From Moniliella sp. 'wahieum' (taxonomy: Eukaryota), in the NCBI GenBank assembly GCA_003971905.1, contig RSEE01000026.1, positions 558,001 through 622,000 on the forward strand: DNA of 64,000 bases, written 5' to 3'. Shown one piece after another: positions 10,934 to 50,788 of this stretch. The notes below the pieces were generated by a model. The model was not told the origin of the DNA, searched no databases, and saw only the letters and a program-made list of their open reading frames with translations. Made by a program: the position numbers and the translations under genes. Each line of letters begins with the position of its first letter. The first letter of the stretch is position 1.

Positions 10934-11130
10934 GTCGCTAGTCGCTAGTCGCTAGTCGCTAGTCGCTAGTCGCTAGTCGCTAGTCGCTAGTCGCTAGTCG
11001 CTAGTCGCTAGTCGCTAGTCGCTAGTCGCTAGTCGCTAGTCGCTAGTCGCTAGTCGCTAGTCGCTAGTCGCTAGTCGCTAGTCGTCGCTAGTCGCTAGTC
11101 GCTAGTCGCTAGTCGCTAGTCGCTAGTCGC
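10934..11130. repeat. Heptanucleotide microsatellite (GTCGCTA)n, about 27 copies with one 3-nt interruption
   Basis: Read directly. Confidence 0.98.
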
Positions 11131-11149
11131 TTGTTATTGAGGGAAGACC

Positions 11150-14120: not shown

Positions 14121-14200
14121 TGACAGGGCGTGGTGGCGGTGGTGGACTTGCATGGAGAGGTACGTTGAATGTGAGGGTGCGGCGGTCCAGCTTGGTGCGC

Positions 14201-14264
14201 GGTGGTGTTGGAGTTGGAGTTAGAGTTGGAGTTGGAGTTGGCGTTGGAGTTGGAATTGGAATTA
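14201..14264. repeat. Hexanucleotide microsatellite (GGAGTT)n, degenerate
   Basis: Read directly. Confidence 0.85.
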
Positions 14265-15097
14265 GACCAAGGAGGGTGAGGCTGAATGCCAGCTGAGCCT
14301 GAGGAACCAATGAGCCGGGGTCGTTTGTGCTCTTGCTCAGGTTGGGGCGGTGGGTCTCTTGCGCGGCAGGGGGACGGATCGTTTGGTCCAGCTGGGTGGA
14401 AGACGGAGTTTGGCCGGCATGCAGGGTCACAGTCACAGGCTAGACAGACGAGGCGTTGGACGAGGAAGGTGTGGTGGGTGTGGTGGGTGGGCCAAGGCAG
14501 AAGGCAGAATACTAAGGCATCTCAAAACACGCGTACTAAAAGGCGAATCATAATCAGGCCCACTACGGCAACGCAGGCAGGTAAGAGCATCTACGCTTCC
14601 TCCTATGTGGCTGTGGGTACGCCGCAGAGAAGCTGTGTCCCATCGCACAATAGCCAGCCCTGGCCAGCCACTAGCCGACCTCCACGTCGGTGGCTTCCGC
14701 TTCCCAGACGGCTGGGACCCTGTCTTCCCGTCCCCACCTCAAGCGAGCATCGCAAGTCCAACCATGTGCCTCCGACCCCCACCCATACACCATACACCAC
14801 GCCTCCTACTAGTCCTGCTCCTCGGGCGAGACTATCTGCGTCGGAACGATGCAACTACATTCACTAGCAGCACAACTAGCCTGGCAAGACGGTTGGTACT
14901 GCATACTTGTTCGGGGGCAAACGAGTGGGTGTGCAGCACCCACACACACCCCCATAACCAAAATTCAAAATACCATAGACAGGCCCTTGGGCACAGGGGC
15001 TACCCCCCCCCTGGCCAAGTACTTTCCGTTGGCACCCACAGATATATAAAGACGACACCACACACCACTTGCACCATCTTAGATCTTTACCTCAACC

Positions 15098-16810: not shown

Positions 16811-17503
16811 GGGGCGTTTGGGCGCAGAGAAGAGGGCGGGGGGGGTGGTGGCGGAGGCAGCAGACGTGAGAAGCTGTGTCTGGGGGCGGGGGGGGGATGG
16901 AGGGTGATGAACGCTGGGGTGAACTTCAACTCAACGGTGAGGATGAGCGCGGCGCTCCCATGGGCGCAGCGCAGGCAAACGCAAAGCAAAAGCAAAAGCA
17001 ACAGCAAAAGCAACAAGCGACTGCCGATGGTTTGCAATCAGGCACTGCGCCTGCGCTATCACGCATGCGCATGCGCCATCGATCACCGATCGTCTGCGCC
17101 GGCAACGCGGCGGAGCGCCGCGGAGGGTTCGCCTGGAGCCGACACTGGCGCCGCGCCTGGGCGGAGCGTCTCGGGCGCGGATCGATTCCATATTCACTCA
17201 ATATTCACCCGTCAATATTCACCACCGTCAATTTCACCGTTGTGGTGAATCCAGCATCCCAGCCTCCCAGCTGCGTCGCTCTGCCGCGTCGCTCCAATTC
17301 TTAATTCTCCCTCTCACTCGACACAGCCACTCCACCACGCCAGTAGTCACTAGTCACGTGCTCCTCGTCACAGCCACGTCACTCGTCACGCGTCACTCCA
17401 TCCCCACTCCATCCCACCACCCACATCACCTGTGCCACATGTGATGTCCCCATCACCCGCCCCCACGTCCAGGTGTTGCTAGCTCAACTGAGTTACTGCG
17501 TAT

Positions 17504-20500
17504 TTACCCCACCATCGCCTCGTCCGCCTCGCCATCCAAGCTGGCTTCTGGGTCCGACTCGGCCCACTCGTCCTCCGCCCGCGCCTCGCCATCGCCCACG
17601 CCCACCCCCACACCCACGCCCACTTCATCCGGCAACACCCGCACGCCGCGTGGCCAGGCCAACGGGTCCGCCGGGGAGACGCTCAAGCTCAAGCTGAGGC
17701 TAGGCAAGTCTGCGCGGTCCAAGGCCGTACTGCCAGTACGCGCAGCGACCTGGATAGCCTTGCGTACACCTTCGCCCATAGCTTTGATGGTACGGACGGA
17801 ACGTGGGTCCAAGTCTGCCGCCACAGCAAAGGTGGTGTGCAATCGCACGTTCGTACCCCGAGTTGCGCACGTACGCTGGTTCGCCTACAGCTTTAGTTCG
17901 GCCTGTTGCGCCTGCTGCGCCTGAGCCCCCGCGGCACCGCCTGCGGCGAGGTGACGACGCACGAAGCCCGCTGCATCGAGGCTGGCAATCGCCTCTGCGC
18001 GGGTCGCGTCGCCGCCTTCCTCTTCCCCAGAGGGCGGTTCGAGCGGGGCAAAGTGACCCCCCGCCAGGCCCATGTAGGACTTGGCAAGTAAGATGTGTAC
18101 GCGAGCTTCGTGTGGGACGAGGGTGCAGGCGCGTAAAAAGTCTTCGTGCGCTTCGCGGACCTGGCCTAGGTCCAATAACAGTTCCCCCCTCTTGAGCAGG
18201 GTCATGGCCATGCTCGGGTCGAGGGATAAGGCTCGGTTGTAAAACCGGATTGCGGTCAACTTGTCTTCGCCCATCTCGCGTACCCAGCCACACAAGTCCC
18301 ACAGCACAGGATTTTGACCATTGATCTCGACGGCTTGGGTGTAGTGGAACTCGGCATAGGCATAGTGACCTTCGAGCAAACTAATTTGTCCGAGACCAGA
18401 CCAGGCATTCCAATGTAACCGATCGCATCGATCGCCGCACGAAAGAAAGCTTTAGCATATCACGTTGGCCCAGCTCCAACGCTTCGTACCCAGCCAACGT
18501 GTACGCATACGCATACCCAGGCGCTACGTTGATTGCCCGACGAAAGAAGCGGAGCGCAATCCCATGTTCGCGCTGCAGGCTAAACGTGTTGCCTGCCACG
18601 ACATTGGCCATCGCACTGGCCTTATCGAGCACAGGCACTCTTGCGCCAGCGCAGCCAGGGCCACTTCGCGGTGCAAGTGGAAGAGCGTAAGGGAATACAA
18701 GTCCATCCCAGCCAAGATGGTAGGATCAACACGACGAGCGCGGGCAAAGTGGCGTTCAGCTTGGGCGTACCGGGCCAAATCATGATTCGCCCTTCCCAAC
18801 AAGACCTGGACCGGAGCCAAGCCCACCACACGCGAATCTAGCACTTTGAACAACCAGCTGTTCTGCCGATTCACCTTGGTCCCGCACTTGGTCCAGCGTC
18901 ACTCCCATATCCTCGTTTGACGATCGCAACAGCCACACCGCCCGACGCGCATGGTACATCCGCACACTGCGATACGCCTCGCCCAAACTCATCAGCAAAT
19001 CCACCACAGCTCGATCCATCGCGTCCACCGCTTAGCTTCCACCACCGCTTGTCGCAGTGCGCGCGAAAGATCCTCCTTGAGATGGAGCACGCTTCGTACC
19101 GGGCCTGAGCGAGCGCAGCGTGGACCCCCCGCATCCCCATCTGCTGGTACGGGGGCAGGGGGCGCAGGGTGTCGGCTGCGCGTGGCAACGCGGTGCGTGA
19201 CCGTGGTCGAAGCAGGGCGAGAACGAGGAGCAGAAGAGATGGAAGCGGTAGACGCGACCGAGGTGGGACGTGGACGTAACGAAGCACGAGTGGAGGTGGG
19301 TGGGGCAGGAGCGGGAGCTGTGGTGGTACGTGATCGAGTGGGGAGAGTGGACGATGTAGTGGAGGCAGGCGGGTGGTGAGCAGAAGAGGTACCGGAACGG
19401 GCGGTACTGCTAAGGATCCGGGTGCTTCGTCGAACTGTACTAGTTTCCGACTCGGTATCCCCTCCCTTACCGCTACCACCAACGGAGCTAGGTGCGTGAG
19501 CGCCGCGCGCATGTCCGTGTGCGGCGCAGAGGCCGCGCCACGAGCCGTATTCATCCGCGTGGTCGTCCTGCATCGTCGTTACCCGGGGCGAGGGCCGAGG
19601 AACGGGTGCGCTTGCTCGTGGCTGTCGCATTAGGAACGCCCGTCACGCGCGAACCAGGGCGTTGGAACGTAGTGCCACTGGTAGAACGAGCCGAGGCCGT
19701 GGCGGCCGACGCGCGAAGGGGCGCCCGAGCAGTTCCCGGTGCACTAGAGGGTGAATTCCAAATCCAAAAGTCAATACGCCGGAACGGGGCTGGGGGGGAG
19801 GGTGGGGGGGGGGGGGTTAAAAGGAAAGCAGGTTTTTGACGTACCTCGTGGTCGAGGCGGCGCGGCCAGCCGCGGCTGTTGTTGTGGTCGGTTTCGCCCG
19901 TGCAGAGGGTGCTCGAGGCCCAGCGGAAGGAGCAGCCATACTCTCCTTCTCAAGCTGAGCCAACTCGTTCTCTAAGGCAACCATTTCCCCATGGCGGGTC
20001 TCGAGGTTGGCGGGTAAAAAGTCAGCGATGCGATGGCCAGAGGGAACAACGAGAGGTCCAAAACGTGAGCTGCAGTCAGGCCCTGTTCCTCGGCCACCTC
20101 ATCATCGGGGATGGGAACTTGGGACAATGTCGAGGAACCACCTGCATCACAATATCCCACCCACGCGCTCCAACACCAACGGTCATGATGTTCCAGCACG
20201 GAGCGATAGGCAAACGACGCGTCGCTTTGCCGATTGCCCGCCAACGCCAGTGAGGCTGCCTGGCACAACCGTTGGGCGTCTTTGGGCGACGCACGGCTGC
20301 CTGGAGGCAAGGGAGGGGTACGGGCTTGGCATGTGCAGAAGACGGTCCAGAGACGGGCGCTTGGGCTTGCAAGGTCCATGCCAGTGCCTCTTCGCCGTCA
20401 CGGAAGCGGCCTAGGCGGCGACACGCTTCGGCATATACAGAGGCAGACTCGGGGTCGCGAAAGGTGGCTGGTCCACCGTGCTCAAGGACGTAGAGCGCCG

Positions 20501-21090: not shown

Positions 21091-21185
21091 CGACAATGAC
21101 AGGATTCGAACCTGTGCAGGCAGAGCCTAATTGATGGTTAGACACGCGTTCTAATCAATCCCCTTAACCGCTCGGGCACATTGCC
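21091..21185 (-). tRNA. tRNA-Ser(AGA) with 13-nt intron
   Basis: Reverse complement GGCAATGTGCCCGAGCGGTTAAGGGGATTGATTAGAA[cgcgtgtctaacc]ATCAATTAGGCTCTGCCTGCACAGGTTCGAATCCTGTCATTGTCG. Acceptor stem GGCAATG/CATTGTC, anticodon stem ATTGA/TCAAT, long variable arm, TTCGAAT T-loop, T5 Pol III terminator just downstream. Intron 21136-21148. Confidence 0.95.
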
Positions 21186-21260: not shown

Positions 21261-23613
21261 ATGACATCACCGGCATCACCGCCAGCTGAATTCCGCCGGG
21301 AGGGCGTGAGCGCGTCTGATTGGGCCGCTGGGCTGCTCGCATCGACACGACACACGTCTACCTCCTCCTGCCACACTCACCCACAGCAGCTCGTCCAGGC
21401 CGCCTTCCATCGACACGCGCTGCCGCCATGGGCTGTCGGGGTGCACGACCACACCAGCGTCCCGGCCGCCCCCACCGGTCCGGGCGCCGCAGCCGGCTCT
21501 CCACCCGCAGCCGACGCCACCGCCCGGCAAGCTGCCCTCCGCGAGCGGCGCGCCGCCCTTCTGGGCCGCATCATCCCCGTCACCGTGGTCGTTGCCTACC
21601 TGTGGGTGTACGCCATCTTTGTTGCCCGTCTCGCCTACCCGCTCCTCCACCCCCGTGCCCCGCACTGCTACCATCATCACGCACCCGTCCGCGGCCACGT
21701 TGGGTGTGCTCGCCATCGCGCTGCTGGCATTGTGCTCCTGGTCCTCTTCCATCTCACCTGGGTCCCCACCATGCTCTCGTACGCGTCCTTGCTCTTCCGC
21801 CTCCCTGGTCCAAGGTACACGCCGCGTCCTTCGTCCCATACAGACGAAAAGGGACCAGTGCCCCCCCGCAACCGACACCAGCCGCTGGGTTCAGCGTTAC
21901 CCCGGCCCACGCGGGCTTCCTCCCATCTTTCTCCGACGTTGGGGGGCGAAGCAACTGATGTGGCCATGAAACAAATCACGCTCGAATCTCCTCTTGCTTC
22001 CCCCTCTGCCGTGTCGCACGTGCACTCTCCTTCTTCGGCCGAAGCATCTCATCCCATGGCTCCTGATTGGCCCCAGTCCAACTTGGACGCGCATGCCGCG
22101 CCTGCTCAGGCTGCCACCTCGCATCGTCCTTCATCTTCTCACTTGCGTCGGTCCAACGATACATGGGAACACGCATCACAAGACAATACGTCCCTGCTGC
22201 CTGTAGCGCCCTCGGTGTCGAGCCAGCACAGTGCCCGCTCGTCCCTCGAGCATCCTCTTGACGATCCCCCTTCCCACACTCGATCCCCTACTCACCTACC
22301 TTCTTCATCCCACGAGCCTCTTTCTCTCAGCCAAGCACTGGCTATCGCCGCTCCTCCTCTCGGCCCCTGCCCGCCCCTCTCCTGACAACAGCCCCATTCC
22401 CAATCCGGATTTTGTCCGGCTTCCTCCGGACTTTGGCCCGGCGCCTGTGCCTGTGGCTGCGGCTCCTGGCCCTGCCGCGAGGTCTACTGAAGAGACGGCG
22501 AGCCCAACCGACGATGGTCGAGCGGCTGCGCCTCTGCCGCGTCCAGCTGCCGTGGTGGGCAACTGGCCCTTGTCCGAGGGAGAATTATGGTGTGAGGCAT
22601 GCCACGCTGAGCGTCCCGCGCGTGCGCACCACTGTCGTCGATGCGGGCGCTGCGTGGAGCGGATGGACCACCATTGTGTGTGGATCAACAATTGTGTGGG
22701 ACAAGGCAACCATCGTCTGTTTTGGACGTTTCTGCTGTGGACGTCGGTACTGGAAGGGTTGGTGTTTGGGTCGGCGATTTGGTCCTTAGCCAAGGTCCGA
22801 CTGGATGGACTGGTGATCAGTCTGCTTCCCTTGAGCTTTTGGTTCTTCGTGTTTACCTCTACGTTGGGTGGTATGCACACTTACCTCCTCACGCATGGTA
22901 TGACGACAATGGAGCAGATGCGCATGACCCAACGCAAGAAAGATTCGGCGGTGCGGATCAAGATCTACCTTGGACCGACGGGTGCTGCCGGGGTGGTACG
23001 TCGAGCCATCCAACAGACCGCTATGGAGGGTACCTTGCCCGTCCCGCCGCGACGACCCGAGGAGGTGGTGGGGTGGGATCAGCCGGCTGGGGTGGAAACC
23101 AGTCCTGCTACCTGGACCAATGAGACCAAGTTAGCTGGTTGGGCAGCTGTTGCTCCCTATGCCGAAGTGGCGCTGCAGCAAGCCCTGGACCTTGGTTCCT
23201 CCCCGCTCTGGTGGAGGAAAGTGCGAGGCGGATGCTTGGCGCGGACCTGGGCGCGAAACGAGATCAAACAACTGCGCTCTGCGTGGGAATGGGAATGGGG
23301 GGAGAGCAGTACGGTAGGCAATGTATGGTGGGTGGATCCAAGTGTGCCTGCTACCGTATCTCCTCCCGCGGCTTCGATCAGTGCGCCGATCGGCAAAGTT
23401 GCTGCTCCTATTGGTCATGCTCGTCCGCACGGACCCAAGGTATGGTGGGCCAACGCCCGCCCTGTAGTAGGGTCATGGTACACGCTCTGGATTCCCTTGG
23501 GTATCCCGCGATCGCCTAACCAGCCTGACGCTCTGGCCGGACTCAATCCGCGCTTCAACCCAGCCCAAGGGCAAGCGCGACCGCGATGGGCTTGGCCCAA
23601 GGAGCTGCAGTGA
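21261..23613 (+). CDS. DHHC-type protein S-palmitoyltransferase
   Basis: 'WCEACHAERPARAHHCRRCGRCVERMDHHCVWINNCVG..NHRLF', two TM helices before and two after, and TTxE motif 'MTTMEQM'. Frameshift near 22380. Start could be 21189, 21261 or later. Confidence 0.92.
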
Positions 23614-25544
23614 TCGTCTTGTTGCCCCTTTCTCATCAAGCTCATCGAGGTCATCTCAACCATCACTGGACAATGTGCGTTTGCTCATCTTCGTATCTAT
23701 TCCCTTGCTCCTTCTTTGCTTCCTTTTTGCATGATGGGAGCGCCACTCTATCGCTATACCAACACACACTTTCCTTCTACCTCGCTCCCCACTGTACTTT
23801 TTGACTTGGCGCCAGCCCAAATCATACGCACAATCGCAGTCCACTATATACGTCGTCTTGAAACCAAATGCGGGCACCACGACTTGTGGCTCACCACTTT
23901 GCCTTCACGCCTTGTCTGACGGCTGCTTTGCAGCTGACCCATAGGATCGCGAGTGCTCCCAAGTCGCACTTTAGAAGCTTCGTCTGCTTCGCTCTGTTAA
24001 CATCTATGCCAGTGCGATGGGGCTTAGACAGGAGGGGGTTACCAAAAAGGGGTCGATCAACAGTCAGCATCCTCGATCAGTGGGAATCCTTTATCCCACC
24101 TTCCATTCTGGTCCCTTCCCACCTTTCTTGGCCAACTCCTGATTGAGTATAATAATACAGGTACCCTCTCTCCACTTAGCTGCCTACCTCGTCCTCTAGC
24201 TTTCCATCCGCCCAGTCGCGCGAGCCTTCCTTCAGCGGCGTCGATTCCCCCTACCACAGCGTATCGCGTGGGTTCCGTTTACAGCTACGCCGACAGCCGC
24301 CCCTGTCCAGCTTCACCCCTGGTAGTATTTTCCCTCCACTGCACCTACCCGTCTCTAAGCCCCGGAGGATTCAGACACGGTACTACCCTCACGCCGGCGC
24401 ATAGGCAACCTTGCCAAGCGTGCGGCCGCCTCAGCTTCACGCCCAAAGGCTTCTCCTCGGCTCGGATCCACCAAATAGCCCAAGCCCGAACTACTGTGAG
24501 TCGTGTACCACACTCACATCTCCTCCTTGCTCCACCACTCCGCCTTGTGCCACGGTTACTCTTTGCACCACCGCTCCCCTTTTAAGGTAGTGGAGGGACG
24601 CGTCGACGCGACTCTTGTCATATGCCCGAAATTATTGGCGTAGCCAGCCCCCCCCCCTGTCACGTGCAGGTCGCCGAGCAGTAGGGTTGTTGGCGGATTT
24701 CTTTGCACCCTATATGGAAAGTAGAGATCCTTCTCAAGCTTCAAGCATGCCAGTGCGTGGTGACCGGTGAACGTAGTACTGAACGTACTGAACACGGTAA
24801 AGGGCCCATGAGTACTGTACTGAGTGCGCCTGGGATGAAGAGGCTTGAGGGTTGAAGCTTGAAGCTTGAAGTCAAGCTTGAAGCCAAGTTCAAGATGGAG
24901 GCTCTTAAAGCTATCTTTTGGGAGAAAGGCTTGAAGCTGTGGTCACTGACCACATGACCTGCATGACCGTACAGGTACTGAGCGCTGGGCCTTGACCTCA
25001 AGCCCTCAAGCTTCAAGCCTCAAAGCCTCAAGCTCCTCACCTCAAGCTTCAAGCCTCAGTCTAAGGCGCTGACGGCGCTGAGGCGCTGAGGCCTCACCAG
25101 TAGAGGAAGAGGGCAGTGGAGTGTGGGATTCCTTCGCCGCCACCCCCGTGTGGCGCCACGGACCGATGACCGCGGGGATCGGTGACCGTCACTCGCTCTT
25201 CCGCGTTGCTAGTTCTCGATCTCTATATCTGTTGCTAGTCACATGTCACATGCATCACAGTCACTGGCGCCGCTCTCGACCTGGGTCTTTCACGAGGTGC
25301 CCCATATGCCACAGCTACTGAATCTAAGCGGCTAGCGAGGGCCAAGTTTTCATGCTCGGACCCCCCACCCTTTGATCCTCCTGAAGGTGTTGTTGCAGCG
25401 GGCACAGCTCTGTCCACTAATATGGTAACGCGGAAGAACGCCGAGGCAGTCATGTATTCATGATGGATAGAAGATCGTACTAAGAAATGGGTACGCTCCG
25501 GTGCGGTATCTTGGGGATCTACTGCCTTCTTGTGGGTTTAACGT

Positions 25545-26398
25545 TTAACGTTTAGTGGGCAAATGGGCAGGCTCCGCCCGACTGGGACACGGCGCCCAGT
25601 GAGGGCAAGTGGTCGCCTTGGCAGCCTCTTCGCCTTCCAACGGTTCCACCTCCACGCCCCGCTCGCCCGCTTCGCGCACAATCTCATTGAAGATGGACAT
25701 GGGGTCGTACCAGATCTCGATGCTCTCGATTTGGAATTTGTCATTGACCTTGGCGACCATCAAGCCTTCGATGCTCAGGATCCCACCGTGCGCCTTGACC
25801 CGCACCATTTGGCCGTTATTGTTGCGGCCAGTGTAATCGTTCTTCATCACGCCCCAGTGCCTCCACTTGGCCGCGACGGTAGGTGGCCCCGAGTAGACCT
25901 CAGTCACTTCCCACACGAAGCTGGGGATGGTCCGCTTAAAGCTCTTGTGGGACGCTTCAAAATTGTTGTGCTTGGGGTCGTAAAACTCGCTCGATCCCAG
26001 CAGAGCATTGTACGTCCCAACGCTCAGCATGTCATTCCCTGAGATCTTCGGCCCGCCGTTCATGCTGAACGTGTACTTGCTCTGATCGACCGTGCGCCAG
26101 TCGCTCAGGTTGGACTTGTAGCTAGCCTCAATCTCCCAGTTCTTGACCAGGTTCGACACAAGGTCGGGCAACGACCCGGCTTCCCAGCTGGTCGTCTTGG
26201 CTGGGTACACAGAAACGCATGTGGTTAGTATACCGGAATAAGTGAGGTGGCATAGTAGACAAGTGGGGGGTACTAGGACATACACTGCTCAAAGTACTCG
26301 CGGCTCTTCTTGTAGCTGGGTACCATCTTGTGGCGCCATGTGACGCCCTCGTCCTTGAGGACAGCGTTGGGGTCGGTCATGTAGTCGGGCAGGGACAT
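25545..26398 (-). CDS. 'Pathogen-related protein' family (SnoaL/NTF2-like fold)
   Basis: 'PDYMTDPNAVLKD..V.WR', 'GSLPDLVSNLVKNWEIEASYK...DWRTVD', 'GTYNAL', 'F.WEV.EVYSGPP.VA.KWRHWG'. Intron 26201-26283 (GTATGT..TACTAAC..CAG); TATATATA near 26510. Confidence 0.85.
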
Positions 26399-27118
26399 GG
26401 CGGTAAAGTTGCTGGGGGAAGAGGAAATAGGGAGATGTGGGTGGGTAGAGAGAAGGTAGGCAGGGAAGAAGCACAGATGGTATAGAGGCAACCTACAGAA
26501 CGAGGGTGTCTATATATATACCCCTTCGGGTGAGAAGTGCGGCGGTTGATAATCGCTTTGTAATAAAGGCTAGCAAAAAGGGACCAGTGTCAGATGTGGG
26601 AGAAGGGCAGGATGCACCCTGCCGGAAGCACGCTCAGGCTGAGCGCTGATCGATGTCGATGATCGTTGACCGGGTGGCCAGGAGTCACTTCAGCGATGCA
26701 GTGGAGGGCCTCACGGCTGTGCGCTGTGACCCTCTCGTGCACTCATGTGGGAGAAGAAGGGTTTGTGGGCCTTCAAGCTTCCGAGAGGAAACAAGGGTGG
26801 CTGATACGCAACAACGTTGTTGGCGCGGTAGGGGTGTTACATGTTAGTCCTTAGGACCGCGCAGGTGGGCTGTGGGGCGGGCGGCGCTCTTGGCAACGCT
26901 TCGTAATTAATGGTTGGTGATCGGGCTAGGGTGGGCTAGGGCAGGCTAGTAGGGCCTATAGGACCCAGCCGGGGGAGTGTGGATGTAACATGCGGTGATT
27001 GGCTTTAGAAACGTCACGCGTCAAGCACGTCAGGATCCGCGGCTTAGATCGTGGTGTGGAAAAGGAAACCATGATGGTGTACTCCACATCGCTCAACGTT
27101 TCCAACGTCCAAAGCCAG

Positions 27119-27168
27119 TGAAGCTTGAAGCTTGAAGCTTGAAGCTTGAAGCTTGAAGCTCGAAGCTA
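27119..27168. repeat. (AAGCTTG)n tandem array, 5 perfect plus 2 degenerate units
   Basis: Read directly; an oppositely oriented (CTTCAAG)3 array lies at 27350-27374. Confidence 0.95.
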
Positions 27169-27870
27169 GCGACTGAGATCACTGACTACTAAAGTCACTA
27201 GTCACACTAGCTGGTAACGTTGCTAGCTCTCTACTGATTATTACTCTGGAGGCCCTGAGGCTCAGGTCTGAGGAGGCCGGAGATAGCCGGTAGAAGGCGC
27301 TGAGTGGTCGCATAAATCTGCGATTATTCATCTTTTTTCAATCTTCGGGCTTCAAGCTTCAAGCTTCAAGCTTCTCGTCAACTTCCCATCGGCTTCATCG
27401 TTCCTGCAAGCTTCATCGATCATCGAACATCTTGCTCATACGATCGGTCATCGTCGGAACCATTAATCGGAGCGACACCGCATCAGACATTTGCAACGAA
27501 ACCCCGAAAAGAGGGGATCATCGATCAGCGCTGCTCAGCTACGTGTTATCGGCCCCCGCCCAGCCGGCGCTGGGCACGTTCCGAGTGGAGGCGTGTGGTG
27601 ACAAGTGGCTGTGGCAGAGCCCCCACAGGCGGTGCTGGGTGGTGGCATGGTGTCACCGGCAGCCCCGTTTCGCGTTGTGGGACGGACAACACAAGCCACG
27701 GACACACGCCTGCACGCGCACGTGGAGTATTCCATGCCATGTACCATGTCCCCGGCGTCCAAGCCAGTTGTCCAACCGACTAATCATAATCACCCCCGCG
27801 CGGTGGGGGTACCATGGCGGCCAAACGTCCAAAACCCGCGGACCGGCAAAGCCCTGGATTGCAAAGCCCT

Positions 27871-27920
27871 GGTAAGCCAGGGCAAGCCAGGGCAAGCCAG
27901 ATCAAGCCAGGGCAAGCCCC
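27871..27920. repeat. 10-bp tandem repeat (GGCAAGCCAG)x5, degenerate
   Basis: Read directly. Confidence 0.85.
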
Positions 27921-28403
27921 AAAGCCCAACACGGCCCACCTGCCCCACCGCCATTTCGGATCATCGATCATCGATCACATGTACAAGTAAATTTTCCCGG
28001 GTGCTACGTACACGGTACACGCCCTACAGCGCCACACAGGACCTGAGACATGTGGCCACCCTCCCAACTCCGCCAGTTGCGTCTTTTCCTCGCCTGCCAC
28101 ACTATCTGCACCCTGTCATGGCCACCCTGTCCCGCCTTCTCTACATACTAAGTAAGTCCTACGGGCAGCGCTGAGCGCCTGAGCGCTCACATGTTACAGC
28201 GCTCGCTCAGCGTGGTGCAGCTGGGTTTCACGGGTGGTGCGCACTGGAGGACGACGGCTACCGCGGGGGGGAGTGTTCCTATGCGCTGCCGAAGCAACGT
28301 TGTCTTCCGCGGTCTGTTCTCTCTCCGATTTGCTCTCTCAGGCGCTCAACGTTGTGACGTTGACGTTGAGGCCGTAAGGCCGAAGCTCAACGTTGAGTTC
28401 AAC

Positions 28404-28462
28404 CTTGAAGCTTGAAGCTTGAAGCTTGAAGCTTGAAGCTTGAAGCTTGAAGCTTGAAGCTT
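28404..28462. repeat. (CTTGAAG)8 tandem array
   Basis: Read directly; related arrays at 24853, 25006, 29793, 30275, 30468 and 30502. Confidence 0.97.
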
Positions 28463-31099
28463 TAATTGAGTGAGATGAGCCTGAGAGCGTTTAACGTTTA
28501 ACGTTCGACGCAACGTTCAGGCTGAACGTTGAACTCAACATGCAAAGGACCGTGTTGCGACCCTGCCAGTTGCGGCCTCTAGTCTCCGATGCTTAGCGCC
28601 TTTTGACACCGAGGCTCAGTAACTGAGTCGACTATCAACTCCTCAGGTTCAGCGCTGATTAATGATTAGTCAGGATGACATTGTAAGACCGAAGGAACCC
28701 AAGGGGTTGGGCGATGAACCTCTGGAAATGTAGAGCAATGCAATCGCGGTGGTGGTGGTTGGGTCTAAGCCTTAGGCCTTATGCCACACCTAGAGGAGGC
28801 AGGGGTTCAAACAAGCCTGAGTATACACGGGAGGCTTCGGAGGTCAAATGAGGAGCAAAAGGGGTGATAAGGCGCCTTGACCTATGTACGGGGCCGCGGG
28901 TCCCAACAGACATATAGCAGCACCGACCAGGCCGATCAGGTCCTCACGTCCTCAGACCCCTCAGGACGTTAGAGGTGGCCAGAATGTCGGAGCTCAAGCT
29001 CTCAAGCCCTCAAGGCCTCAAACCTTGTAAACGTTACAAGTAACTAGCAAAGCTAGTAACTATTAACGTTACTATATAGTTACTCTTTTAATTCCCTGAC
29101 GATTCCGGAGCGTCGTGCCGAGCGTCGAGCAAGACACTGCCTTTTACATGTTACACGTTACGCGTTTTACGCGTTACATGTTGCAGCGCACAACAGGAAC
29201 AGAAAAGGGTTGCGTGCTGGATCAGCAACAGCTTCCATATGCTCTCTGTACCGGGCATACTAACAGGGCGTACCTTTTGTCCTTGTATTTACGAGCTTTG
29301 CTCAGCGCTCACTCTCAGACCGTGCATTACATGCACGGTAGGAGCTACGCGTTATGATTATGCGGCCCCTCCGGGGCTCTCTCCATCGCATTCCCACCAC
29401 AACAGTTCATCACATTCATCGACATCGACCATATCGATCATCGATCATCATATACCCTGTACTAACGTTCAGTCGGCACCGGAAGCCCGAGTGCCTGATC
29501 GATGGCCTTCGATGGCTCACTAAGTACTCACCAGTTACTAGTTAGCGCTTAGCGCTTAGCGTCGACCACTCCCTCTATCTCTCGACACCATAGTAGTGCT
29601 TGAAATTGGCGGTAATCTGGTCAGGGCAATGCCCTCTTCTACACTATGGCTTTTGATACACGTTTTTCACGGAGCGATTAACGTCGATCACAATGCCCGG
29701 TCACGCGGTCACGCGTCACGGTGACCCGTGCCGGTCAGGACGACAAGTCAACCATATCAGAAAGAGCTCCGCTTAGATCTCAGAAGAACTCATGAAGCTT
29801 GAAGAGCTTGAAGCTTGAAGCTTGACGCTTGAAGCTTGAAAAGACTTTGGGGCTTACCAGTGGCTTGACCGATCTTGCCGTCCTCAAACAAGCCTCATGC
29901 ACCACCTTTTTTACGCCGCATCGCATTCCACCATCTCTCACACGTGTGAATCTCAACCTTACCATGGATTCCCCGTATCTCACCATCCCACACCTGAGCG
30001 TCTGACCTTCCTTAGGAACTCAGGCAGTCAGGCACTCAGGCACTCAGGCTCCACAAGCCTCACCGGCACCACGCGTTCGGGCCTCAGGCCCTGAGGCTTC
30101 AGGCTTCCCCATAGGCCTTCTTATCGGGCTCATATCTCGGAACGTACCTGCACGGAACGGACTGTGGCCATGGAGCAATATACGGTCTGTTTGTTGGCGA
30201 GATGCACATCACACACTCACCCACTTTTGCCGTCGGCACGATCTGAAGAGGATCTGAAGCTTTTGGAGCTCTTGCTTGAAGCTTGAAGCTTGAAGGGAGC
30301 CCGAAGGCATGAGAGGCTCTTCTTTTGAGGCTTCAGGTTTTCAGGCCTCAGGATCAATGATACGCTGCGAGCGGCGAACGTCACCAGGTTGATCAGGTTC
30401 TTCCATCGAACGTTCAACGTCGTTCAACGAGAATATTCCCGCGTCTGTGCGTTTTCACCCTTCACTTTCAAGCTTTTCAAGCTTCAAGCTGCATAAAGCT
30501 AAAGCTTGAAGCTTGAAGCTTGAAGTACAAGTAGCGTACGTGCCGCTCGATTCCTTTTCAAGCCGGTGACCAAGTCGCCTATCTCTTCGTTCACTTGAAC
30601 CTTCTGTCCATAGATGCCATGGTTAACAAGCCCTTATTCTGAGATCTGAAGTCTGAAGTCTGAAGCTTCATCTGAAGCCTGAACATGAACATTGAACGGC
30701 GGTGAACCCGGTGAGCGGTTCGAACGATGAGTATACGTTTGAGCCTACTATAGGCCGCGCTCAGCTACGCGCGACCAGCAGCATCTCAGTATTCACACTC
30801 CACACAATAGTTGCGTCGGGCCGCATCCTGTACTGACCTCTTTCTCGCGAGCTTGCTGAGGTGCCTACGTTTCTTCCACTATCACAGCGTCCGCGGCGTT
30901 TCTATACACACTTTGGACCATAATACCCTCCACCCTACTTCTCAATATTTTCCCGGGCTATGCGCCGGCGGGACTGAAAGAGAGCTCTCGAGGTGGCGAA
31001 CTTTCGCCCCCCTTAAGAGCTTAGCCCAAATGCGCCAAAATGCTTAGCTGTTGATTGGGTACGTGTTTGTAGGCTCTCTAACCGGCTGGCTGGATGGGG

Positions 31100-32000
31100 C
31101 TGGCATCGATGCAGATTTACTAGATTTACAGGCAGGGAAGGTATTTGTTAGATATGGAATGGATGCATTCGAAGATCGCTGGGAAGCGATTACACGGCAA
31201 CCACGGTTCGGTGGTATGTAGGACAGAAGCACCACAACGTACTAGAGCAGTGAGCGGCACGTACAGAAAGTGGAAGGTTAGTATGAGGGGAGTGTGCACT
31301 ATAGGGAGAAGCTGGCCAAGTCAGCAGCAGCACAGGGTTAGCGAGAAACACAGAAGATGTGCGACGGACTCACGGGTCAGGCGATCAAGTCGGCCAGTAG
31401 CAAGGGCAAGCGGATGAAGTCAGAAGTACACGGTGAGGCGAACAAGGTCAGGAACAACGTCTCGGCATATAACAGAAGGGGAGCACGACGGCGAAACAGG
31501 TCAGATGAGTCGAGGCGAACAAGGCGAGACGAACCAACCGTGGGATTCCGTGCATGCAGCAGCTGGGCAGATAGTGTCAGAGTGGCAGGGCAACTCCAAG
31601 CGCGAAGGACGGGGGACGTATGATGGCAAGGCAGACCAGCCAAGTGAGAGGACCACAGGCTAGGCAAACCATGTAAGCGAGACAGCCAAAGTGAGCAGAC
31701 GGACAAGGGTGGCTCGAAGGCGAGCGAAAAAGGTGCGTGCACATCACGCATGCGACCCACAAGGTCAGCAGAAGCGAGGGGAATGCGGAGGAAACGGGGC
31801 ACGTACGATGGCGCTGCGGACCAGGTGAAACGATGAAACGAGGGCAAGATGGCCTGCGAGGGGCAGTCTGTGTAGGCAAGGTCAGCAACAGCATGGGCGG
31901 GCAAGACAACACGTACGACAGAAGCAATGCAGACACAGTGAGAGGGGGAAGGGCGAGAGGCAGAGGGGGCGTTCAACAGCGATACTGACGAGGCGATATA
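31100..32000 (-). ncRNA. Putative spliced long non-coding transcript
   Basis: Minus strand is pyrimidine-rich with five donor motifs (GTACGT x4, GTGAGT) and about 14 CTRAC branch motifs. Well-formed introns at 31868-31916 and 31312-31373. No convincing ATG-initiated ORF in the putative exons. Confidence 0.45.
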
Positions 32001-33430: not shown

Positions 33431-33909
33431 GGCGGGAGGTGGTTGGGGAGGGGTCCGAGCCAAGCCGCCGATTCAGAGCAGGAAGGAGGCAGCGACGGGG
33501 TGGCCAACTCACAGCCCCCGCGGCGGCTAACCCTAGAGGCGGTTGCGTGCGTCGTGGGGGCACCTGGCCTGTGCGCCGCCGCGCGGAGAAGCTCGGCCAT
33601 GTATATCGACGCCCAGTTCAGTTCATATTTCATTTCCGCATTGCGCATGCGTGCTCGCTCGCCCTGGCCGCACGTGACGCGTGACCCGTGATTAATGATT
33701 AATGATTCCGCTCGGGGCGCAGGCGGCGAGTGTGGGGCATTTGCCCGGCGCACCCGGCTGTAGCACCCCCGCACGGACCGCGTAACGCACGCGAGCTTGC
33801 AACAGAGGACGCAATCACTAGCAAGACCCCCCGGCCCTCCGGTCCTCCTGCCCCCCCCCACTCCTCCTTCTCCCCCTTCATGCACCTCCAGCCCACCTTG
33901 CGCCAAGCC

Positions 33910-37251: not shown

Positions 37252-38106
37252 TTAAAGTAATTGAAAGGAATTCTTGCCACTGGTTGCGTAGTAGGCTGGG
37301 CCGCCGGATGCCGACGGCGTCGTGCCGGGGTCGGCCGGTCATCGTCATCGATCATCAATCATGGACCACGATGACGACCACGTCTTCAGCTGGTCATATG
37401 ACCAGCATGTCCCACACCGGCGCTTTCGTTCGTGTCCATGTCGTTGGGATGTCCTTACCAGCGTAGCCGCCCCCAGCGCACTCTGTGCTCAGGAGCAGCG
37501 CACCATTGCTCATTAGCTATCGAGTACGCAGGCCGAAGTGAGAAGTGCGAAGTGCGAAGTGCGAATGCTTTGCGTGTCCACGGCACTGACTGGGTTACTG
37601 ATTCCTCGATTCTCCGTCGCTTTGTGGATGTGACAGCATGTGACATGTGACGTGTGACAGGTGACAGGTCACATGACCGGCATGCCACCGTGCCAGCCAA
37701 CGGCTTGCTGGGTGGCATTGCCCCGCACTGCGCCATCACGTGTCACATGTCACGCATCATCGATCAATCATCAATGGAGATCACCGGTTTTGATCACCCG
37801 GCGCCGGTGACATCAGCGATGCCCCGCTCGGGGGAAGAAGTGAGTACGGAGCAGTGCCGATCATCCATGGCGGTGTCGATCGCTGAGGGGCAGACGCTGC
37901 GCAGCAGGGCTGCTGGGCCTCCGAAGAGAGGCGCCACGCTCAGCCGAGGCAGTGAAGCTTCAACTTCAACTTCAAGCTCCAAGTGCAGACCAGGAGGCTC
38001 AACCTCAGGCACAACACCTCCGCCGCCGTTGCGCCCCCGCGTCCTCTGCTCCGCCTGCTCCGTCCCCCTCCCCACCACCACCACCACCACCACCACCGCC
38101 GCTGCC

Positions 38107-39264: not shown

Positions 39265-40974
39265 TCTCATCGTTCGGATCGGCTTTGCCATGCGCAGACT
39301 CGCGCTCTTTCTCTTCCATTCTTCATTTCCTCATCTCTCCTCCACCCTGGATCACGGAGCGCTTGCTCTTTTCGCACTCCTTTTCCCTTCCTTGCCACAA
39401 CCCACCTCTTTGTCGTGGCAGTTTCCCTTTTTTCTCTTTCTCTTTCTCTCTTACCGCCTGCGGGTGTCCGGGTCCCCTTTGTCCTTCCTTGGTCCGTCCG
39501 GGGTTTCCTTTGCTCTACCTCCCAAAGGGGGCTACGCACAGGGCCCCAACTGTTACCCTTTTCCTGCGTTCGACGGTACAGCCAGCACCTTCTGTTTGTG
39601 TACTCGCCTGCTGGCTTGGCTTTTGTCTTGTCCCCTCTCGGTCTGAGCACTCATTTCCCCTTTCTTCTCCCATGCACTACCGCGTGTATTCCCCCCACCC
39701 CCCCCACCCCACCTAGCTCTCCGTGCGCACCTCAATCGCATTGACGTGGGTTGGTGTTTTGTCCTCCTCCTTCTGCGGCCAGAGGGGAGCGGAAACAAAA
39801 GACTGGACCTGCTTGCGCTTCTCCCGCCTCTTCTCACTCTAAGCTATGCACCATCTTGCAACGGACCCTCTACCCCTTGTCGGGTGGCAGAGGCAACTAC
39901 CAAACCGGCACGAACCACCAGACGGCCACGCCACGCATCCTGTATGTGTATCACAGGCAGGACGCCTCGATGCCTCGATGCCTCGATGATCGATGACGCT
40001 AGCAGCGACCTAGGGAGCATACGTTGCCTCCGATCTCATTTGCTCCATGTGCAAAACGGAATGCAGATGGGGGGTAGTTACGGTGCCTTTGTCGTTCATA
40101 GGCCAGGCGTGATCTGAGAGGCAGTGGGGGAACGTGGCCCAGATCGGGGCGGGGAAGGGTGCGGGGCGCGTGGGGGTGGTGGCGCACGGTGGTGGCGCTC
40201 CGTGGCGTGTGATGCATGATGTGACAGAGTTCTGGCCAGGAAGGCAGGGGCGGCCATTACGCGTTACATGTTACAAGGTACGAGAGGGCAATAGATAGAC
40301 CCAGATCCACAGAGGGCGTCGAGAGATGCTTACCGGTTACCACAACACAGATGGCGCCCGCGGCCATCTTGTCGCACGCTATCGACATATTTGTCCACAT
40401 TGCCTCGCTGACCGGTGCCGGTCGGCGGCTAGATGCTGGTCCGCACGAGGTGCCACTCGGGTCAAAGGCTGCTAGCAGCCTCCTCAGGCCTGAGCCTCAG
40501 GCCTCATCGACCTCATCATTGTCTGGCGGGCAAGAGATGACATCGCGCGGCTCCGTACCCAGAAAGCAACGGGCGAGCGAAGATGAGTGCCGGCTGACCG
40601 TGCTGGCCATCAACGGCCATGGCCCAAAGGACGCTTTATATGGCACACACCTCGGCAAAACGCTCGGCCGTCGCCGAAAGAGAATGCTGGCAGATATGTA
40701 CTAGCTACGGCAGGCATCCAAGATCTCTCTATCAGGTGGTGGGCCGCTCGGTGCTGCGATTGGCGTGGGGCAGCAGGAGCTGACATCCCCGCGTAGGTGG
40801 GCCTAAGAAATAGGTTTCGTAGGGTCAAGTCTATCGAGAAGAAGGAGGCGAAGGCAGCCAAAATGAAGGAAGAGCAGAACTCGTTGTAGGTCCATATCAT
40901 AGATCCCACAGCAAAAAAAACAGCTCAACGGGGCTGCCAAAAGCGCGTCATAGGGGTAGGGGGGTGGCTAGAGG

Positions 40975-44349: not shown

Positions 44350-46315
44350 GGTGCGGCAGGCAACGAGCGGCGCACAGGCAATGGGCAAGGGCGATGGTGG
44401 AGATGGGTGGAGGGGCAGGCTGGTGTCGCAGCCAAGCGGGCGGGGGCTTACGTCAGATGACGTGCGGGGGCTGCATGTCCTGCCCTGCCAGCCTGTCGGC
44501 ACACGGCGAGGGAGAGGGCGCTGGGCTGAGGTAAGCGCCAAGCGCCACCAGCTGGCCTGGCCCAAGCGCTGGGGGGGTGGCGCGCCCCCTCTCCAAAGTA
44601 TAACAGGGGTAGCCGAGAGCCTATCGTTTTACATCCTCCTCACGCCCCTCCCTCGCCCCTCCTCTCCCCCCAGCACCCGTTGGGCAGTGCCAAAGGGGTG
44701 CGATTAACGAATCCCTAGACCACGTCCATTTCATTGACAGAGCTTAAGGCTGGGACAGGGGGAACTACGCTACGTCTAAACCTAACCGTTCATCTTGCGG
44801 TTACTGGAGGCGCCACCAGGGTCAAGGAACCAGGGGGATCGCCAGGATATCAGGACCCTCCGGCTCACGCCATCCGGTCCCGTACCCTAGGAAGCGCGTG
44901 TGGACACGGAGGAACGTGGTTGACATCCGAGCGAGGAACCATTTCCACTGAGACTTAGTAGCCAACTCCTTCCAATGCGCAAACTTGCTCGCCGTCTTGG
45001 TGCCGTAGTATCCTCGCGTCTCTCAAAACCAGGGGGAAAAAACGGCTCTTGAGTGCGTCCCTGTCTTTTTTATATTCTTTTATTAGGCGCGAAAAAGCAG
45101 TTCACCACAGCTTGCAACGTTGATTTCCACCGTCAGAATCGTGTGAAATAAGATGGCGTCAATCATGTATTTGGGACACCCACATTCGCTTCAGTCCCAT
45201 AACCCATATGTAGCTGAATACACAGAGTCTACGGTACTAGAGTGCGACTTCTGGGAGCTTTGAGGAATCCTACGGGATTCGTTGCAAAGTGGAAGGTGGT
45301 GCAGCGAAAAAGAAAAACCAACCGTGCATATCCTCCGGTCCAGGTACGTCTTGTCTGGAGCAGGTATGTGCACAATGCTGCGGCAAAGTGAGTCGAACTC
45401 ACGTTCGTGAAAATGACGATGCAATGAAGATTCCCCCGTCCCCCACAGTGTACAGTAGCAACAGTGGGTGGGATGAAGCTGGGTGTATGTTCAACGTTCA
45501 AGGTACGTTCAAGCTTGAACGTTGAACGTTGAACGCAGGAACGAACGCCCTTAAGAAAGATCGCTCATATTAATGCTAAGGGTTGCCCACCCGTTTACAG
45601 TGGACCCTGGCTCACTTCCCAGCCTCTTTATAGTAGAGTGTGTCCAGACACACTCTTTGCCGCAACTCAAAAAAAGGATATCCAGCCTGCGCTACTGTAT
45701 AGATCCGACGTGACTAATAAATAGTACGAGGGCGAGGGTTGTGATACATTACTATGCTAATAACCGCCCACAACCATAACCGCCTGTGCAGCGGTCAAAA
45801 CGGAGTGTCCTATATGTGGGGCTGGCGGTATGTATAACAAGTTGGGACCTGTTTGGACAATAAAAGTCTAAGCGGTATAGCACAGCTGAGGAGCAGTGAG
45901 GAGAAGGCTAAGAGAATACAGCGTGTTTGATAAGTAGTGGCACAACTAAAGAGGAGCATGTGATCGATGACGATCTGTTAGGAGAAAGAGGCTGTGGGAA
46001 GGGTTCGTGGTGCGCTCAAGTAGTGCAGGGAACGAACGTGACGCGTGAGGCCTGAAGAGGTGAGATGTGTGAGTGTGTGGCGCAGAGCAGCGCCGTGCTG
46101 GTCGCACCCCAGCGCAATTGCGCTGCTGCGCTCGTCTGACGCAGCCATCGAAACGCCAACAGCTGGCGAGAGGAACGCAGATCCATGTGGGAGCGTATTA
46201 ACCGTGGTCTTCTTCGCCTCGCCGCTCACTCCCTCCCCAATCCCCAATCCCATCCTCGCCCTCCTTCCTCTCCTCGTCCTCCTCGCACTCCTGCACTACA
46301 CTTCCCCGCCTTGTC

Positions 46316-50170: not shown

Positions 50171-50788
50171 GTGGTGATGTGGGGCGTGCTGCGGCAAAGC
50201 AGGCGGCAAAGAGGCGGCAGCCCTGTGGCGGTGCTCTGTGCGTGTGGCGCAGTGTGGGCGTGGGGGTGCCATGTGACATGTGACATGTGATGCAAGGGGT
50301 GGGACATGCATGACATGTGACATGTGACATGCGAGGGACGAACGATGATCGATGATTCATCCAGAGACCTACACGCACTGCACGAGTCCACCGCATGCAT
50401 CCACCACTGCGTCGGGGGAGGGCGGGCTGGTGCGGCGGGTGCGGCTGGGGCACCTGGGGGCACAGGCGTGACGCGTGAGATCTGAGAGGCGCACTCGCCG
50501 CACTGGCCCACACTGGCGCCGCGCCAGCGCACCGTGCTTCCGCGGCGGAACGGCAGCGGCGACGGGTGAGCGGGCAAGGGTGGCGGGGTGGGGGACGCGT
50601 GATGGGTGACGGGTGACGCGTGACGTCAAAAGCCGCACGACGACCACCACTTGGAAACAACCACCCCGGCCTTGCGGGGCGTCCACAGCATCTCGGCGCG
50701 CGTCTCCAGCACCACCGCCACCACCCCCGCCGCCCTCCTTTCCCATCGCCACCGCCTCCCGCCCTCCTCCTCCCAGCCCCGTCCCCGT

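Follow-up and report, generated by a model that had tools for sequence, protein, structure and literature searches.

Mixed palindromic heptamer chains in a Moniliella contig read as stacked, flank-templated 7-bp scars, with transposon excision as a candidate source

The coding joints of V(D)J recombination and the footprints of RAG and Transib elements arise from blunt hairpins on the flanking DNA that are opened off-centre, and carry an even palindrome composed of the flank and its inverted complement. Target duplications of Transib elements are 5 bp long. For the Transib clade, duplications of 2-5 bp are given in the accessible text of PMC12730594, and Artemis:DNA-PKcs is described as opening hairpins mainly 2 nt 3' of the tip, yielding mostly 4-nt inverted-repeat 3' overhangs (accessible text of PMC2175297). 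Transposons that form hairpins on the flank leave palindromic, flank-derived footprints, according to the portions available of three sources (PMC4561436; PMC5499845; PMC5873905). Ac/Ds and other hAT elements in plants, budding yeast and Candida albicans keep both target duplications, with palindromic flank-derived insertions at the joint and host end-joining repair, and 28 footprint types were recorded among 128 Ac/Ds excisions in Candida (PMC5873905, in the part available). Among basidiomycete families, 7-bp target duplications are listed for hAT7 (Pucciniales, the rusts) and Kyakuja (KDZ; Laccaria) in the accessible text of PMC12730594. Finally, PIF/Harbinger elements such as mPing and those of the IS5 group target T-any-A triplets, and heptanucleotide microsatellites form tandem arrays with a 7-bp period.

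The window analysed here, a stretch of 64,000 nucleotides of Moniliella sp. 'wahieum', holds chains of TNA triplets separated by 4-bp cores. The initial annotation had pointed to six such triplets in exact 7-bp register at 29521-29558, and the sequence, when re-read, agreed with it letter for letter: TAA-GTAC-TCA-CCAG-TTA-CTAG-TTA-GCGC-TTA-GCGC-TTA, with three palindromic cores (GTAC, CTAG and GCGC, the last one twice) and one non-palindromic spacer, CCAG. It consists of stereotyped mutational scars stacked one upon another and is not a microsatellite. These scars resemble V(D)J and Transib joints in their palindrome of 2+2 nt, the size of the dominant Artemis 4-nt overhang (PMC2175297, accessible text), and in keeping the flank without loss; however, coding joints are diverse, whereas the scars are nearly invariant and iterated into chains, and they differ from Transib footprints in an apparent 7-bp duplication centred on TNA and in being known from scars alone, with no element or transposase in the window. 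Likewise, hAT footprints are heterogeneous, whereas practically one product per side is found here. hAT7 and Kyakuja share the duplication length needed by a symmetric model and have basidiomycete hosts; the accessible text of PMC12730594 does not report them from Ustilaginomycotina, and the window holds no copy. The T-any-A triplet is shared with PIF/Harbinger and IS5-group targets, but a 3-bp duplication with precise excision, as described in the available part of PMC4561436, has no means of generating a 4-nt palindrome from the flank. Heptanucleotide microsatellites have the 7-bp period and the tandem arrays in common with the chains, but adjacent units here bear unrelated palindromic cores.

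Units of two TNA triplets enclosing a 4-bp palindrome numbered 114 in the window, as against 6.3 ± 2.5 (maximum 11) in 30 dinucleotide shuffles. Cores were palindromic in 114 of the 206 occurrences of the frame T.A....T.A (55%) and in 3.7-11.7% of those in the remaining 15 X.Y frames, and the enrichment was limited to cores of length 4 (length 2, 18/80; length 6, 1/129; length 8, 1/86). Fourteen distinct palindromic cores were found. Eight runs carried at least five TNAs in 7-bp register, three of them with six TNAs, including the chain at 29521-29558; in 100 shuffles no run of at least five appeared, and runs of four occurred at 0.07 per shuffle. Only the T and the A of the target are fixed, N tracking the background frequencies of TCA, TGA, TTA and TAA. 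Complementary Ns, which make 10-bp perfect palindromes, occurred in 12 of 114 units (1.8 expected), and these need a second route, for example hairpin opening further from the tip. Open reading frames with Pfam hits (14,409 bases) contained 5 units where 25.7 were expected, all five outside the matched domains, a shortage indicating that the pattern is mutational rather than coding. The stretch at 24-32 kb, richest in units, is without Pfam matches and has a lower G+C content (0.53-0.56).

The core of a unit is made of two flanking bases and their inverted complement. Writing a site as pq-TNA-rs, the elementary event adds 7 bp and gives either pq-TNA-q'p'pq-TNA-rs (left) or pq-TNA-rss'r'-TNA-rs (right), that is, TNA is duplicated and the gap between the copies consists of the two flanking bases plus their inverted complement; every core is therefore a 4-bp palindrome, whose sequence is set by the site and by the side used. 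Among 64 isolated units, left and right events were balanced, 26 mirroring only the left flank and 21 only the right, while 4 mirrored both and 13 neither. The P nucleotides of a hairpin footprint, an inverted complement of the adjacent flank, were thus found in 51 of the 64, compared with 10.4 ± 2.9 (maximum 23) in 10,000 permutations of the cores among sites. The direct target repeat that a hairpin footprint carries at its joint was also present: N was the same in both TNAs of 95 of the 114 units (1.9 expected), 116 of the 124 cases that fitted a flank had T ahead of the first NA, and where a 5-mer pqTNA was repeated at a distance of 7 bp the spacer was inverted pq in 60 of 79 instances. The same spacer test gave at most 12% in 14 of the 15 other frames, the exception (T.G, 25/82) coming from one array.

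Since the core depends on the flank and the left and right flanks differ, one TNA yields two core types, and a left and a right event at a single TNA place two different cores next to each other. The TNA at which an event acts is retained and a further one arises at a distance of 7 bp, so that repeated events give chains in strict register. The proposal that register, and not unit sequence, is the conserved property is hence borne out, each event adding exactly 7 bp and a new TNA. The accompanying idea of iterative addition is supported in part: the chains keep the register and do not result from slippage plus mutation, the cores are not free but templated by the flank, and either the new TNAs or the ancestral ones may have been the substrates of later events. 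These rules were applied to the chain at 29521-29558 and to the other mixed chains of the window (Table 1).

Table 1. Positions of the chain components, other mixed chains and arrays within the 64-kb window.
Positions	Feature	Composition or flank fit
29519..29530	left-flank event, core GTAC	AC (29519-20) + TAA + GT.AC + TCA
29531..29534	spacer CCAG between TCA (29528-30) and TTA	sequence
29533..29544	left-flank event, core CTAG	AG + TTA + CT.AG + TTA; left flank fits
29542..29560	two right-flank units, core GCGC	TTA + GC.GC + TTA + GC.GC + TTA + GC
50469..50485	mixed chain TGA-CGCG-TGA-GATC-TGA	fits with both flanks (left CG, right GA)
40257..40273	mixed chain TTA-CGCG-TTA-CATG-TTA	right flank CA fits CATG
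45509..45532	mixed chain TCA-AGCT-TGA-ACGT-TGA-ACGT-TGA	right flank AC fits ACGT
33675..33705	mixed chain TGA-CGCG-TGA-CCCG-TGA-TTAA-TGA-TTAA-TGA	fits with both flanks (left CG, right TT)
24700..30700	hot region	65/114 units within 24-32 kb
27119..27156 and 28406..28464	TGAAGCT arrays inside the hot region	

In the chain at 29521-29558, the GTAC core joins the inverted complement of AC to AC itself; the TNAs around it are unequal at N (TAA and TCA), which counts against a simple scar model and needs one substitution. CCAG is read as an ancestral spacer that would have separated two ancestral TNAs, the alternative being a CTAG unit decayed by one T>C change; the chance of an in-register TNA is given by P(T.A)=0.035 per position. 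The last two bases of the spacer, AG, are the template of the neighbouring CTAG core, which is their inverted complement followed by AG itself; in the GCGC core the right flank GC (29559-60) comes first and its inverted complement second. Tandem Repeats Finder (TRF) called 29542-29561 with period 7 and 2.9 copies, and either a new event or slippage may have produced the second GCGC unit. Given three palindromic cores and only two obtainable from one TNA, two ancestral TNAs are needed, already spaced 7 bp apart (TCA-CCAG-TTA), as well as four 7-bp events. The simplest history would start from an ancestral 14-mer, AC-TNA-CCAG-TTA-GC, in which a left event at the first TNA would have produced GTAC, a left event at TTA would have produced CTAG, and two right units would have supplied both copies of GCGC. 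An open reading frame at 29092-29523 ends in the first TAA of the chain; it is without a Pfam match and appears non-coding. A bacterial-type promoter and terminator scan of 29000-30000, of a kind inapplicable to a fungus, gave nothing above shuffle levels.

The three further mixed chains listed by the initial annotation (45509-45532, 50469-50485 and 40257-40273) were all located at exactly those positions. The one at 50469-50485 corresponds, as judged from its flanks, to what one ancestral CG-TGA-GA site would give after one left and one right event. At 40257-40273 the left flank is CA, not CG, leaving CGCG unexplained unless CG later became CA, and at 45509-45532 the AGCT unit has complementary Ns, which make it a perfect palindrome of 10 bp, and is embedded in a larger array of GTTCAAC/GTTGAAC units. 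The chain at 33675-33705, between divergently oriented pyrophosphatase and SDR genes, could have grown from a single ancestral CG-TGA-TT site through four events plus one substitution. Five of the seven mixed chains fit on one side only, and each of the 19 chains with at least two units had one or both outer flanks fitting.

As the source of the scars we somewhat favour a cut-and-paste transposon that repeatedly inserted, duplicating a 7-bp target with TNA at its centre, and was excised again. Such an element would insert into nnTNAnn with duplication of the 7 bp, and its excision would leave both flanks as blunt DNA hairpins, each of which would be opened 2 nt 3' of the tip by a host nuclease of the Artemis/Pso2 type. 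The opened hairpins would bear the 4-nt palindromic 3' overhangs rss'r' and q'p'pq, both duplex ends would finish in TNA, and end joining would retain one overhang and drop the other, from which exactly the two observed products follow, in about equal numbers. Products keeping both overhangs were not observed (0.35 expected), and those having lost both (TNATNA, same N) showed a weak excess (42, compared with 28.5 ± 5.2). It is the symmetry between left and right products that leads us to infer the 7-bp length of the duplication and its centring on TNA; a counter-model with a 5-bp duplication and two one-sided P-nucleotides yields identical sequences. Isolated units are 5+2 structures and not full 7-bp duplications. 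Several observations speak against this source: for a window without a visible element, 114 scars in 64 kb, and about 8 per kb in the hot region, make a very high density; known footprints are much more varied; 13 of the 64 isolated units, as counted above, fit neither flank, and five of the seven mixed chains fit on one side only; and the complementary-N units need a second route.

Searches for the element itself covered the window. Pfam detected no transposase among 270 open reading frames of at least 110 aa in the 64 kb, nor among 81 of at least 55 aa at 23.4-32.4 kb (E<=0.01), and a scan for inverted ends with a 7-bp or a 3-bp TNA duplication, which is blind to elements lacking inverted ends, returned none, the best 30 of 60 and the best 30 of 75 candidates being array pairs. 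The transposon may reside elsewhere in the genome, outside the window. No dispersed paralogous copies were present among the self-BLAST matches listed (54 hits), which were tandem arrays or local tandem repeats. A metagenome scan with a 24-base TGAAGCT array retrieved at least 120 loci, and among the matches listed none had the window's excess of diverse palindromic cores; one locus (L038) is a weak candidate only. A limited search of the accessible open-access literature found no prior description of 7-bp TNA-palindrome-TNA scars in Ustilaginomycotina.

Ordinary heptanucleotide microsatellites, grown by slippage and point mutation with their palindromy kept by selection, for instance as protein-binding or structure-forming promoter elements, would account for the long uniform arrays (TGAAGCT x5 and x8, GTCGCTA x28), for the frequent one-mismatch neighbours (14 pairs) and for the location of units in non-coding DNA beside genes. 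However, a simulation of slippage plus substitution, the comparison on which the initial annotation had staked its reading, did not reproduce mixed palindromic chains at the observed frequency. With the substitution/slippage ratio tuned to the observed proportion of one-mismatch to identical neighbour pairs (14:24), neighbours with different palindromes arose at 0.01-0.019 per identical pair, whereas the window has 7 per 24 (0.29); about 0.2-0.5 mixed pairs would thus be expected per 24 identical ones, 15-30 times below the observed number. Neighbours differing at all four core positions, of which four were observed, amounted to 3 of 66,559 simulated pairs (ratio 0.3). Binding-site selection, for its part, leaves unexplained both the 14 different palindromes and the identity of the core with flank plus inverted complement in the 51 isolated units. 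The microsatellite account is therefore largely refuted for the mixed chains and highly improbable as a whole, slippage probably acting as a secondary process that lengthened the long uniform arrays.

The same flank-templated 7-bp scar could be made without a mobile element if DNA is broken at TNA, by a nuclease of the host or by a domesticated transposase, and the gap is filled by end joining or polymerase template switching that adds a direct and an inverted copy of the flank; the lack of both element and transposase in the window, the extremely uniform outcome and a target fixed only at T and A, with N at background frequencies, agree with such an origin. Against it, a duplication of at least 5 bp with an inverted dinucleotide demands a staggered break and a hairpin-like step, fill-in of staggered cuts predicts plain tandem duplications of nnTNAnn, of which there were 11 cases with no excess over other frames, and a template-switch path returning to the original template without microhomology could not be constructed by reasoning, this point not being a computed one. 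We consider this origin possible but rather doubtful. Footprints of classic hAT elements (8-bp duplication), or of PIF/Harbinger or IS5-like elements (3-bp TNA duplication), are very unlikely, even though TNA is the usual PIF/Harbinger target (PMC4561436, in the part available) and hAT excision passes through flank hairpins, with palindromic insertions left behind (available parts of PMC4561436 and PMC5873905). The Ac/Ds palindromes are described in the accessible text of PMC5873905 as odd and centred on the complement of the element-adjacent base, whereas the cores here are even and 4 nt long, and net gain and period are 7 bp rather than 8. As for PIF, mPing either excises precisely via TNA 5' overhangs or leaves both duplications (PMC4561436, accessible text), the latter predicting the TNATNA products whose excess was weak (42 vs 28.5), and a 3-bp duplication is unable to copy the two bases outside TNA that are copied here. 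Among other candidate models, a core formed by the terminal dinucleotides of an element was ruled out, as the core follows the flank; so were a palindromic 7-mer duplicated in tandem, as no more than 4 of 64 units fit on both sides, and a 4-bp duplication with an odd hairpin of the hAT type, as T stands before the first NA 116 times out of 124. The products predicted by a 5-bp duplication with symmetric hairpin opening were not seen (partly by reasoning), and a 3-bp duplication with hairpins predicts TNATN'A, which showed no clear excess.

Excision scars with P nucleotides are already known at single loci and in reporter assays, whereas in this transposon-poor fungal genome a single stereotyped kind of scar is dominant in the non-coding DNA and recurs in chains. 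The scar reading predicts the ancestral sequence at every chain and, if true, the past activity of an element, its target rule and its repair chemistry would be readable from sequence alone with the element unseen, heptamer arrays could be seeded without slippage, and promoters would be subject to a mutational process that remodels them in 7-bp steps. A broader proposal, which we regard as unlikely, is that this smut-related lineage harbours an undescribed, very active and almost error-free DNA writer, a new TNA-centred 7-bp transposon family or a domesticated derivative, moving into and out of non-coding DNA so frequently that scars far outnumber copies. If so, this writer would, beside genes, go on producing 6-bp palindromes of the form A-NNNN-T together with heptamer arrays and variation in length, and would rank among the main sources of change in the regulatory sequence of these genomes.

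The chain at 29521-29558 comprises six T-any-A triplets (TNA) spaced at exactly 7 bp, with palindromic spacers of three kinds (GTAC, CTAG and GCGC, the last present twice) and CCAG as the sole non-palindrome. A direct reading of the window confirmed the sequence, triplets, register and three palindromic cores reported in the initial annotation, and the three further chains cited there were found at their coordinates.

Positions of the repeat features and associated elements in the window
Position	Strand	Feature	Details
5931, 24872, 25087, 28387, 30661, 35177, 37953, 40484, 58556 and others		Complementary-N units	TCA...TGA or TGA...TCA
10934-11131		GTCGCTA array	About 28 copies; TCG-CTAG in the 3+4 grammar, TCG replacing TNA
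21091-21185	-	tRNA, the one found by Rfam	95 bases, with room for an intron; between two protein-coding regions
25548-26288	-	ORF	Below-threshold SnoaL-like match, sole hint in 23600-32000
29521-29558		Six-TNA chain	TAA-GTAC-TCA-CCAG-TTA-CTAG-TTA-GCGC-TTA-GCGC-TTA
29535-29558		Mixed chain	Both outer flanks fit
33675-33705		Five-TNA run	Fits both sides, allowing one substitution
37736-37773		Another six-TCA run, 7-bp register	Cores CATG, CGCA, TCGA, ATCA; in 5' part of a long ORF, protein kinase domain further downstream
40257-40273		Mixed chain	TTA-CGCG-TTA-CATG-TTA
45489-45535		Opposed heptamer arrays	GTTCAAC then GTTGAAC units, junction an AGCT core; together a larger, imperfect palindrome; HSP70-family gene downstream
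45509-45532		Mixed chain	TCA-AGCT-TGA-ACGT-TGA-ACGT-TGA
50469-50485		Mixed chain	TGA-CGCG-TGA-GATC-TGA; both outer flanks fit

In the window, 114 TNA-[4-bp palindrome]-TNA units were counted versus 6.3 ± 2.5 in 30 dinucleotide shuffles, with 14 distinct palindromic cores, AGCT being the most frequent (36). Palindromic cores occupied 55% of the T.A....T.A frames (114/206) against 4-12% in the fifteen other X.Y frames, and the enrichment was confined to core length 4. There were 8 runs of at least five in-register TNAs, whereas 100 shuffles produced none. Pfam-matched ORFs (14.4 kb) held 5 units versus 25.7 expected, all outside the matched domains, and 65 of the 114 units lay at about 24-32 kb; the stretch of ~8 kb at about 23.6-32 kb, which holds the chain at 29521-29558, is without Pfam match and has a lower G+C (0.53-0.56). 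Given its position, the six-TCA run is a 5' leader or a repeat tolerated in coding sequence.

All neighbouring in-phase core pairs in the window were classified: 24 were identical palindromes, 7 were different palindromes (3 with two differing positions, 4 with all four), and a palindrome adjoined a one-mismatch non-palindrome in 14 pairs and a more distant one in 13. Any single substitution breaks a 4-bp palindrome, and one-mismatch neighbours should therefore abound under slippage plus substitution, with hardly any second palindrome. In a simple simulation that granted the first palindromic unit, with substitution/slippage ratios from 0.1 to 4, the ratio reproducing 14:24 yielded 0.010-0.019 different-palindrome pairs per identical pair versus 0.29 in the window, and pairs differing at four positions numbered 3 of 66,559 at ratio 0.3. 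Slippage with point mutation, the explanation against which the initial annotation had proposed to weigh the mixed chains, thus falls 15- to 30-fold short and is rejected as their source.

The cores instead follow their flanks. Among 64 unchained units, 26 matched the left flank only (last two core bases equal to the two bases before the first TNA), 21 the right flank only (first two core bases equal to the two bases after the second TNA), 4 both and 13 neither; the 51 fitting units compare with 10.4 ± 2.9 (maximum 23) in 10,000 permutations of cores among sites. With p, q and r, s as the bases left and right of TNA, and primes as complements, the elementary event is accordingly pq-TNA-rs to pq-TNA-q'p'pq-TNA-rs or to pq-TNA-rss'r'-TNA-rs, a 7-bp gain in which 5 bp are copied directly and 2 nt in inverted form. 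With both flanks matching in just 4 of the 64, tandem duplication of all 7 bp is rejected. The T of the first TNA was present in 116 of 124 flank-fitting cases and is therefore required; the two Ns of a unit were identical in 95 of 114, and inferred ancestral sites displayed no strong preference beyond T and A, N being at background frequencies. Counting 5-mers repeated at distance 7 with inverted pq as spacer, T.G (25/82) was the sole other enriched frame, because of the GTCGCTA array, which probably grew by slippage from a TCA-CTAG unit that had mutated. These units are very probably scars of a mutational, flank-templated and iterated process.

Mixed chains arise because the core templated by the left flank of a TNA differs from that templated by its right flank. 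The ancestral nnTNAnn survives each event and gains a palindromic nnTNAnn beside it, so repeats at one TNA are limited to the form (left core)m(right core)n, and the outer flanks should match. In each of the seven mixed chains there are exactly two cores with a single switch between them; the two outer flanks both fit in two chains, and one flank fits in the other five. At 29521-29558, the left flank AC (29519-20), preceded by its inverted complement, makes up GTAC; CTAG is likewise built on the AG that ends CCAG, and in GCGC the right flank GC (29559-60) comes first and its inverted complement second. The simplest history starts from a 14-mer, AC-TNA-CCAG-TTA-GC, whose two TNAs lay 7 bp apart from the outset, followed by four 7-bp additions and one N change (TAA versus TCA); an in-register TNA has a chance P of 0.035 per position, so that a few are expected over ~80 loci. 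Alternatively, CCAG is possibly a decayed CTAG unit, their likeness being partly built in because AG is the template. The second GCGC unit may be a separate event or a slippage copy.

Left and right products are mirror images of roughly equal frequency, and a symmetric excision model reproduces both. An element would insert with a 7-bp target duplication (pqTNArs), and its excision would seal both flanks as blunt hairpins; nicked 2 nt 3' of the tip, these would give duplex ends both finishing in TNA, with 4-nt palindromic 3' overhangs rss'r' and q'p'pq, of which end joining would retain one and remove the other. We consider this transposon-hairpin mechanism slightly better than an even prospect. 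On coding-end hairpins, Artemis:DNA-PKcs cuts 2 nt away from the tip and yields mainly 4-nt overhangs (PMC2175297), and Pso2, the fungal homologue, is named as the relevant factor for Ac/Ds in yeast (PMC5873905). The model's predicted minor products are rare: retention of both overhangs was seen in 0 cases versus 0.35 expected and loss of both in 42 versus 28.5 ± 5.2, and the window held no excess of plain 7-bp duplications, the product of hairpins opened at the tip. Complementary-N units forming 10-bp perfect palindromes (12 versus 1.8 expected; shuffle maximum 5) point to a second route or product class outside the simple model, perhaps hairpin opening further from the tip. Neither a transposon or transposase nor paralogous copies giving the before state were found within the 64-kb window.

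P nucleotides at hairpin-derived joints share the logic of these scars. Classic hAT footprints, as described in PMC5873905, combine an 8-bp duplication with palindromes centred on the complement of the base adjoining the element and with varied outcomes (28 types among 128 Ac/Ds events in Candida), whereas the scars here are of the even (blunt-hairpin) type; on these three features a hAT footprint is ruled out. PIF/Harbinger elements share the TNA target, but mPing excision is precise, via TNA overhangs (PMC4561436), and a 3-bp duplication could not copy bases outside TNA, so this origin is also rejected. PMC12730594 describes basidiomycete families with 7-bp duplications, hAT7 in rusts and Kyakuja in Laccaria, the latter with CA..TG ends and without inverted repeats. 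A limited literature search found no published description of such scars in these fungi; new here are the explicit finding that the slippage model fails, the account of mixed cores as a choice between left and right flank, the symmetric 7-bp/4-nt-overhang model and the argument for even palindromes against the hAT type.

The window is eukaryotic, with intron-interrupted genes for kinases, a DHHC palmitoyltransferase, inorganic pyrophosphatase, short-chain dehydrogenase, E1 dehydrogenase, HSP70, a RhoGEF/CNH protein, ribosomal uL16 and tyrosine phosphatase. The dehydrogenase has its best named relatives in Pseudozyma flocculosa (53%), Sporisorium scitamineum (51%) and Microstroma (42%), the highest matches overall reaching 72-73%, which places the host within Ustilaginomycotina without a close named relative. 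The metagenome contig WNGR01000687.1 (20 kb, 52% G+C; locus 4291-18763) carries 12 palindromic TNA units versus 34 non-palindromic ones, with cores AGCT, GATC, CCGG and TCGA and the flank mirrored in 10 of 12, and may come from a different genome in which this process acts at lower density. A metagenome scan with the most frequent array, a rough negative control, returned at least 120 loci, and none among the matches listed displayed this grammar at comparable strength, which suggests that the scar process is lineage-specific.
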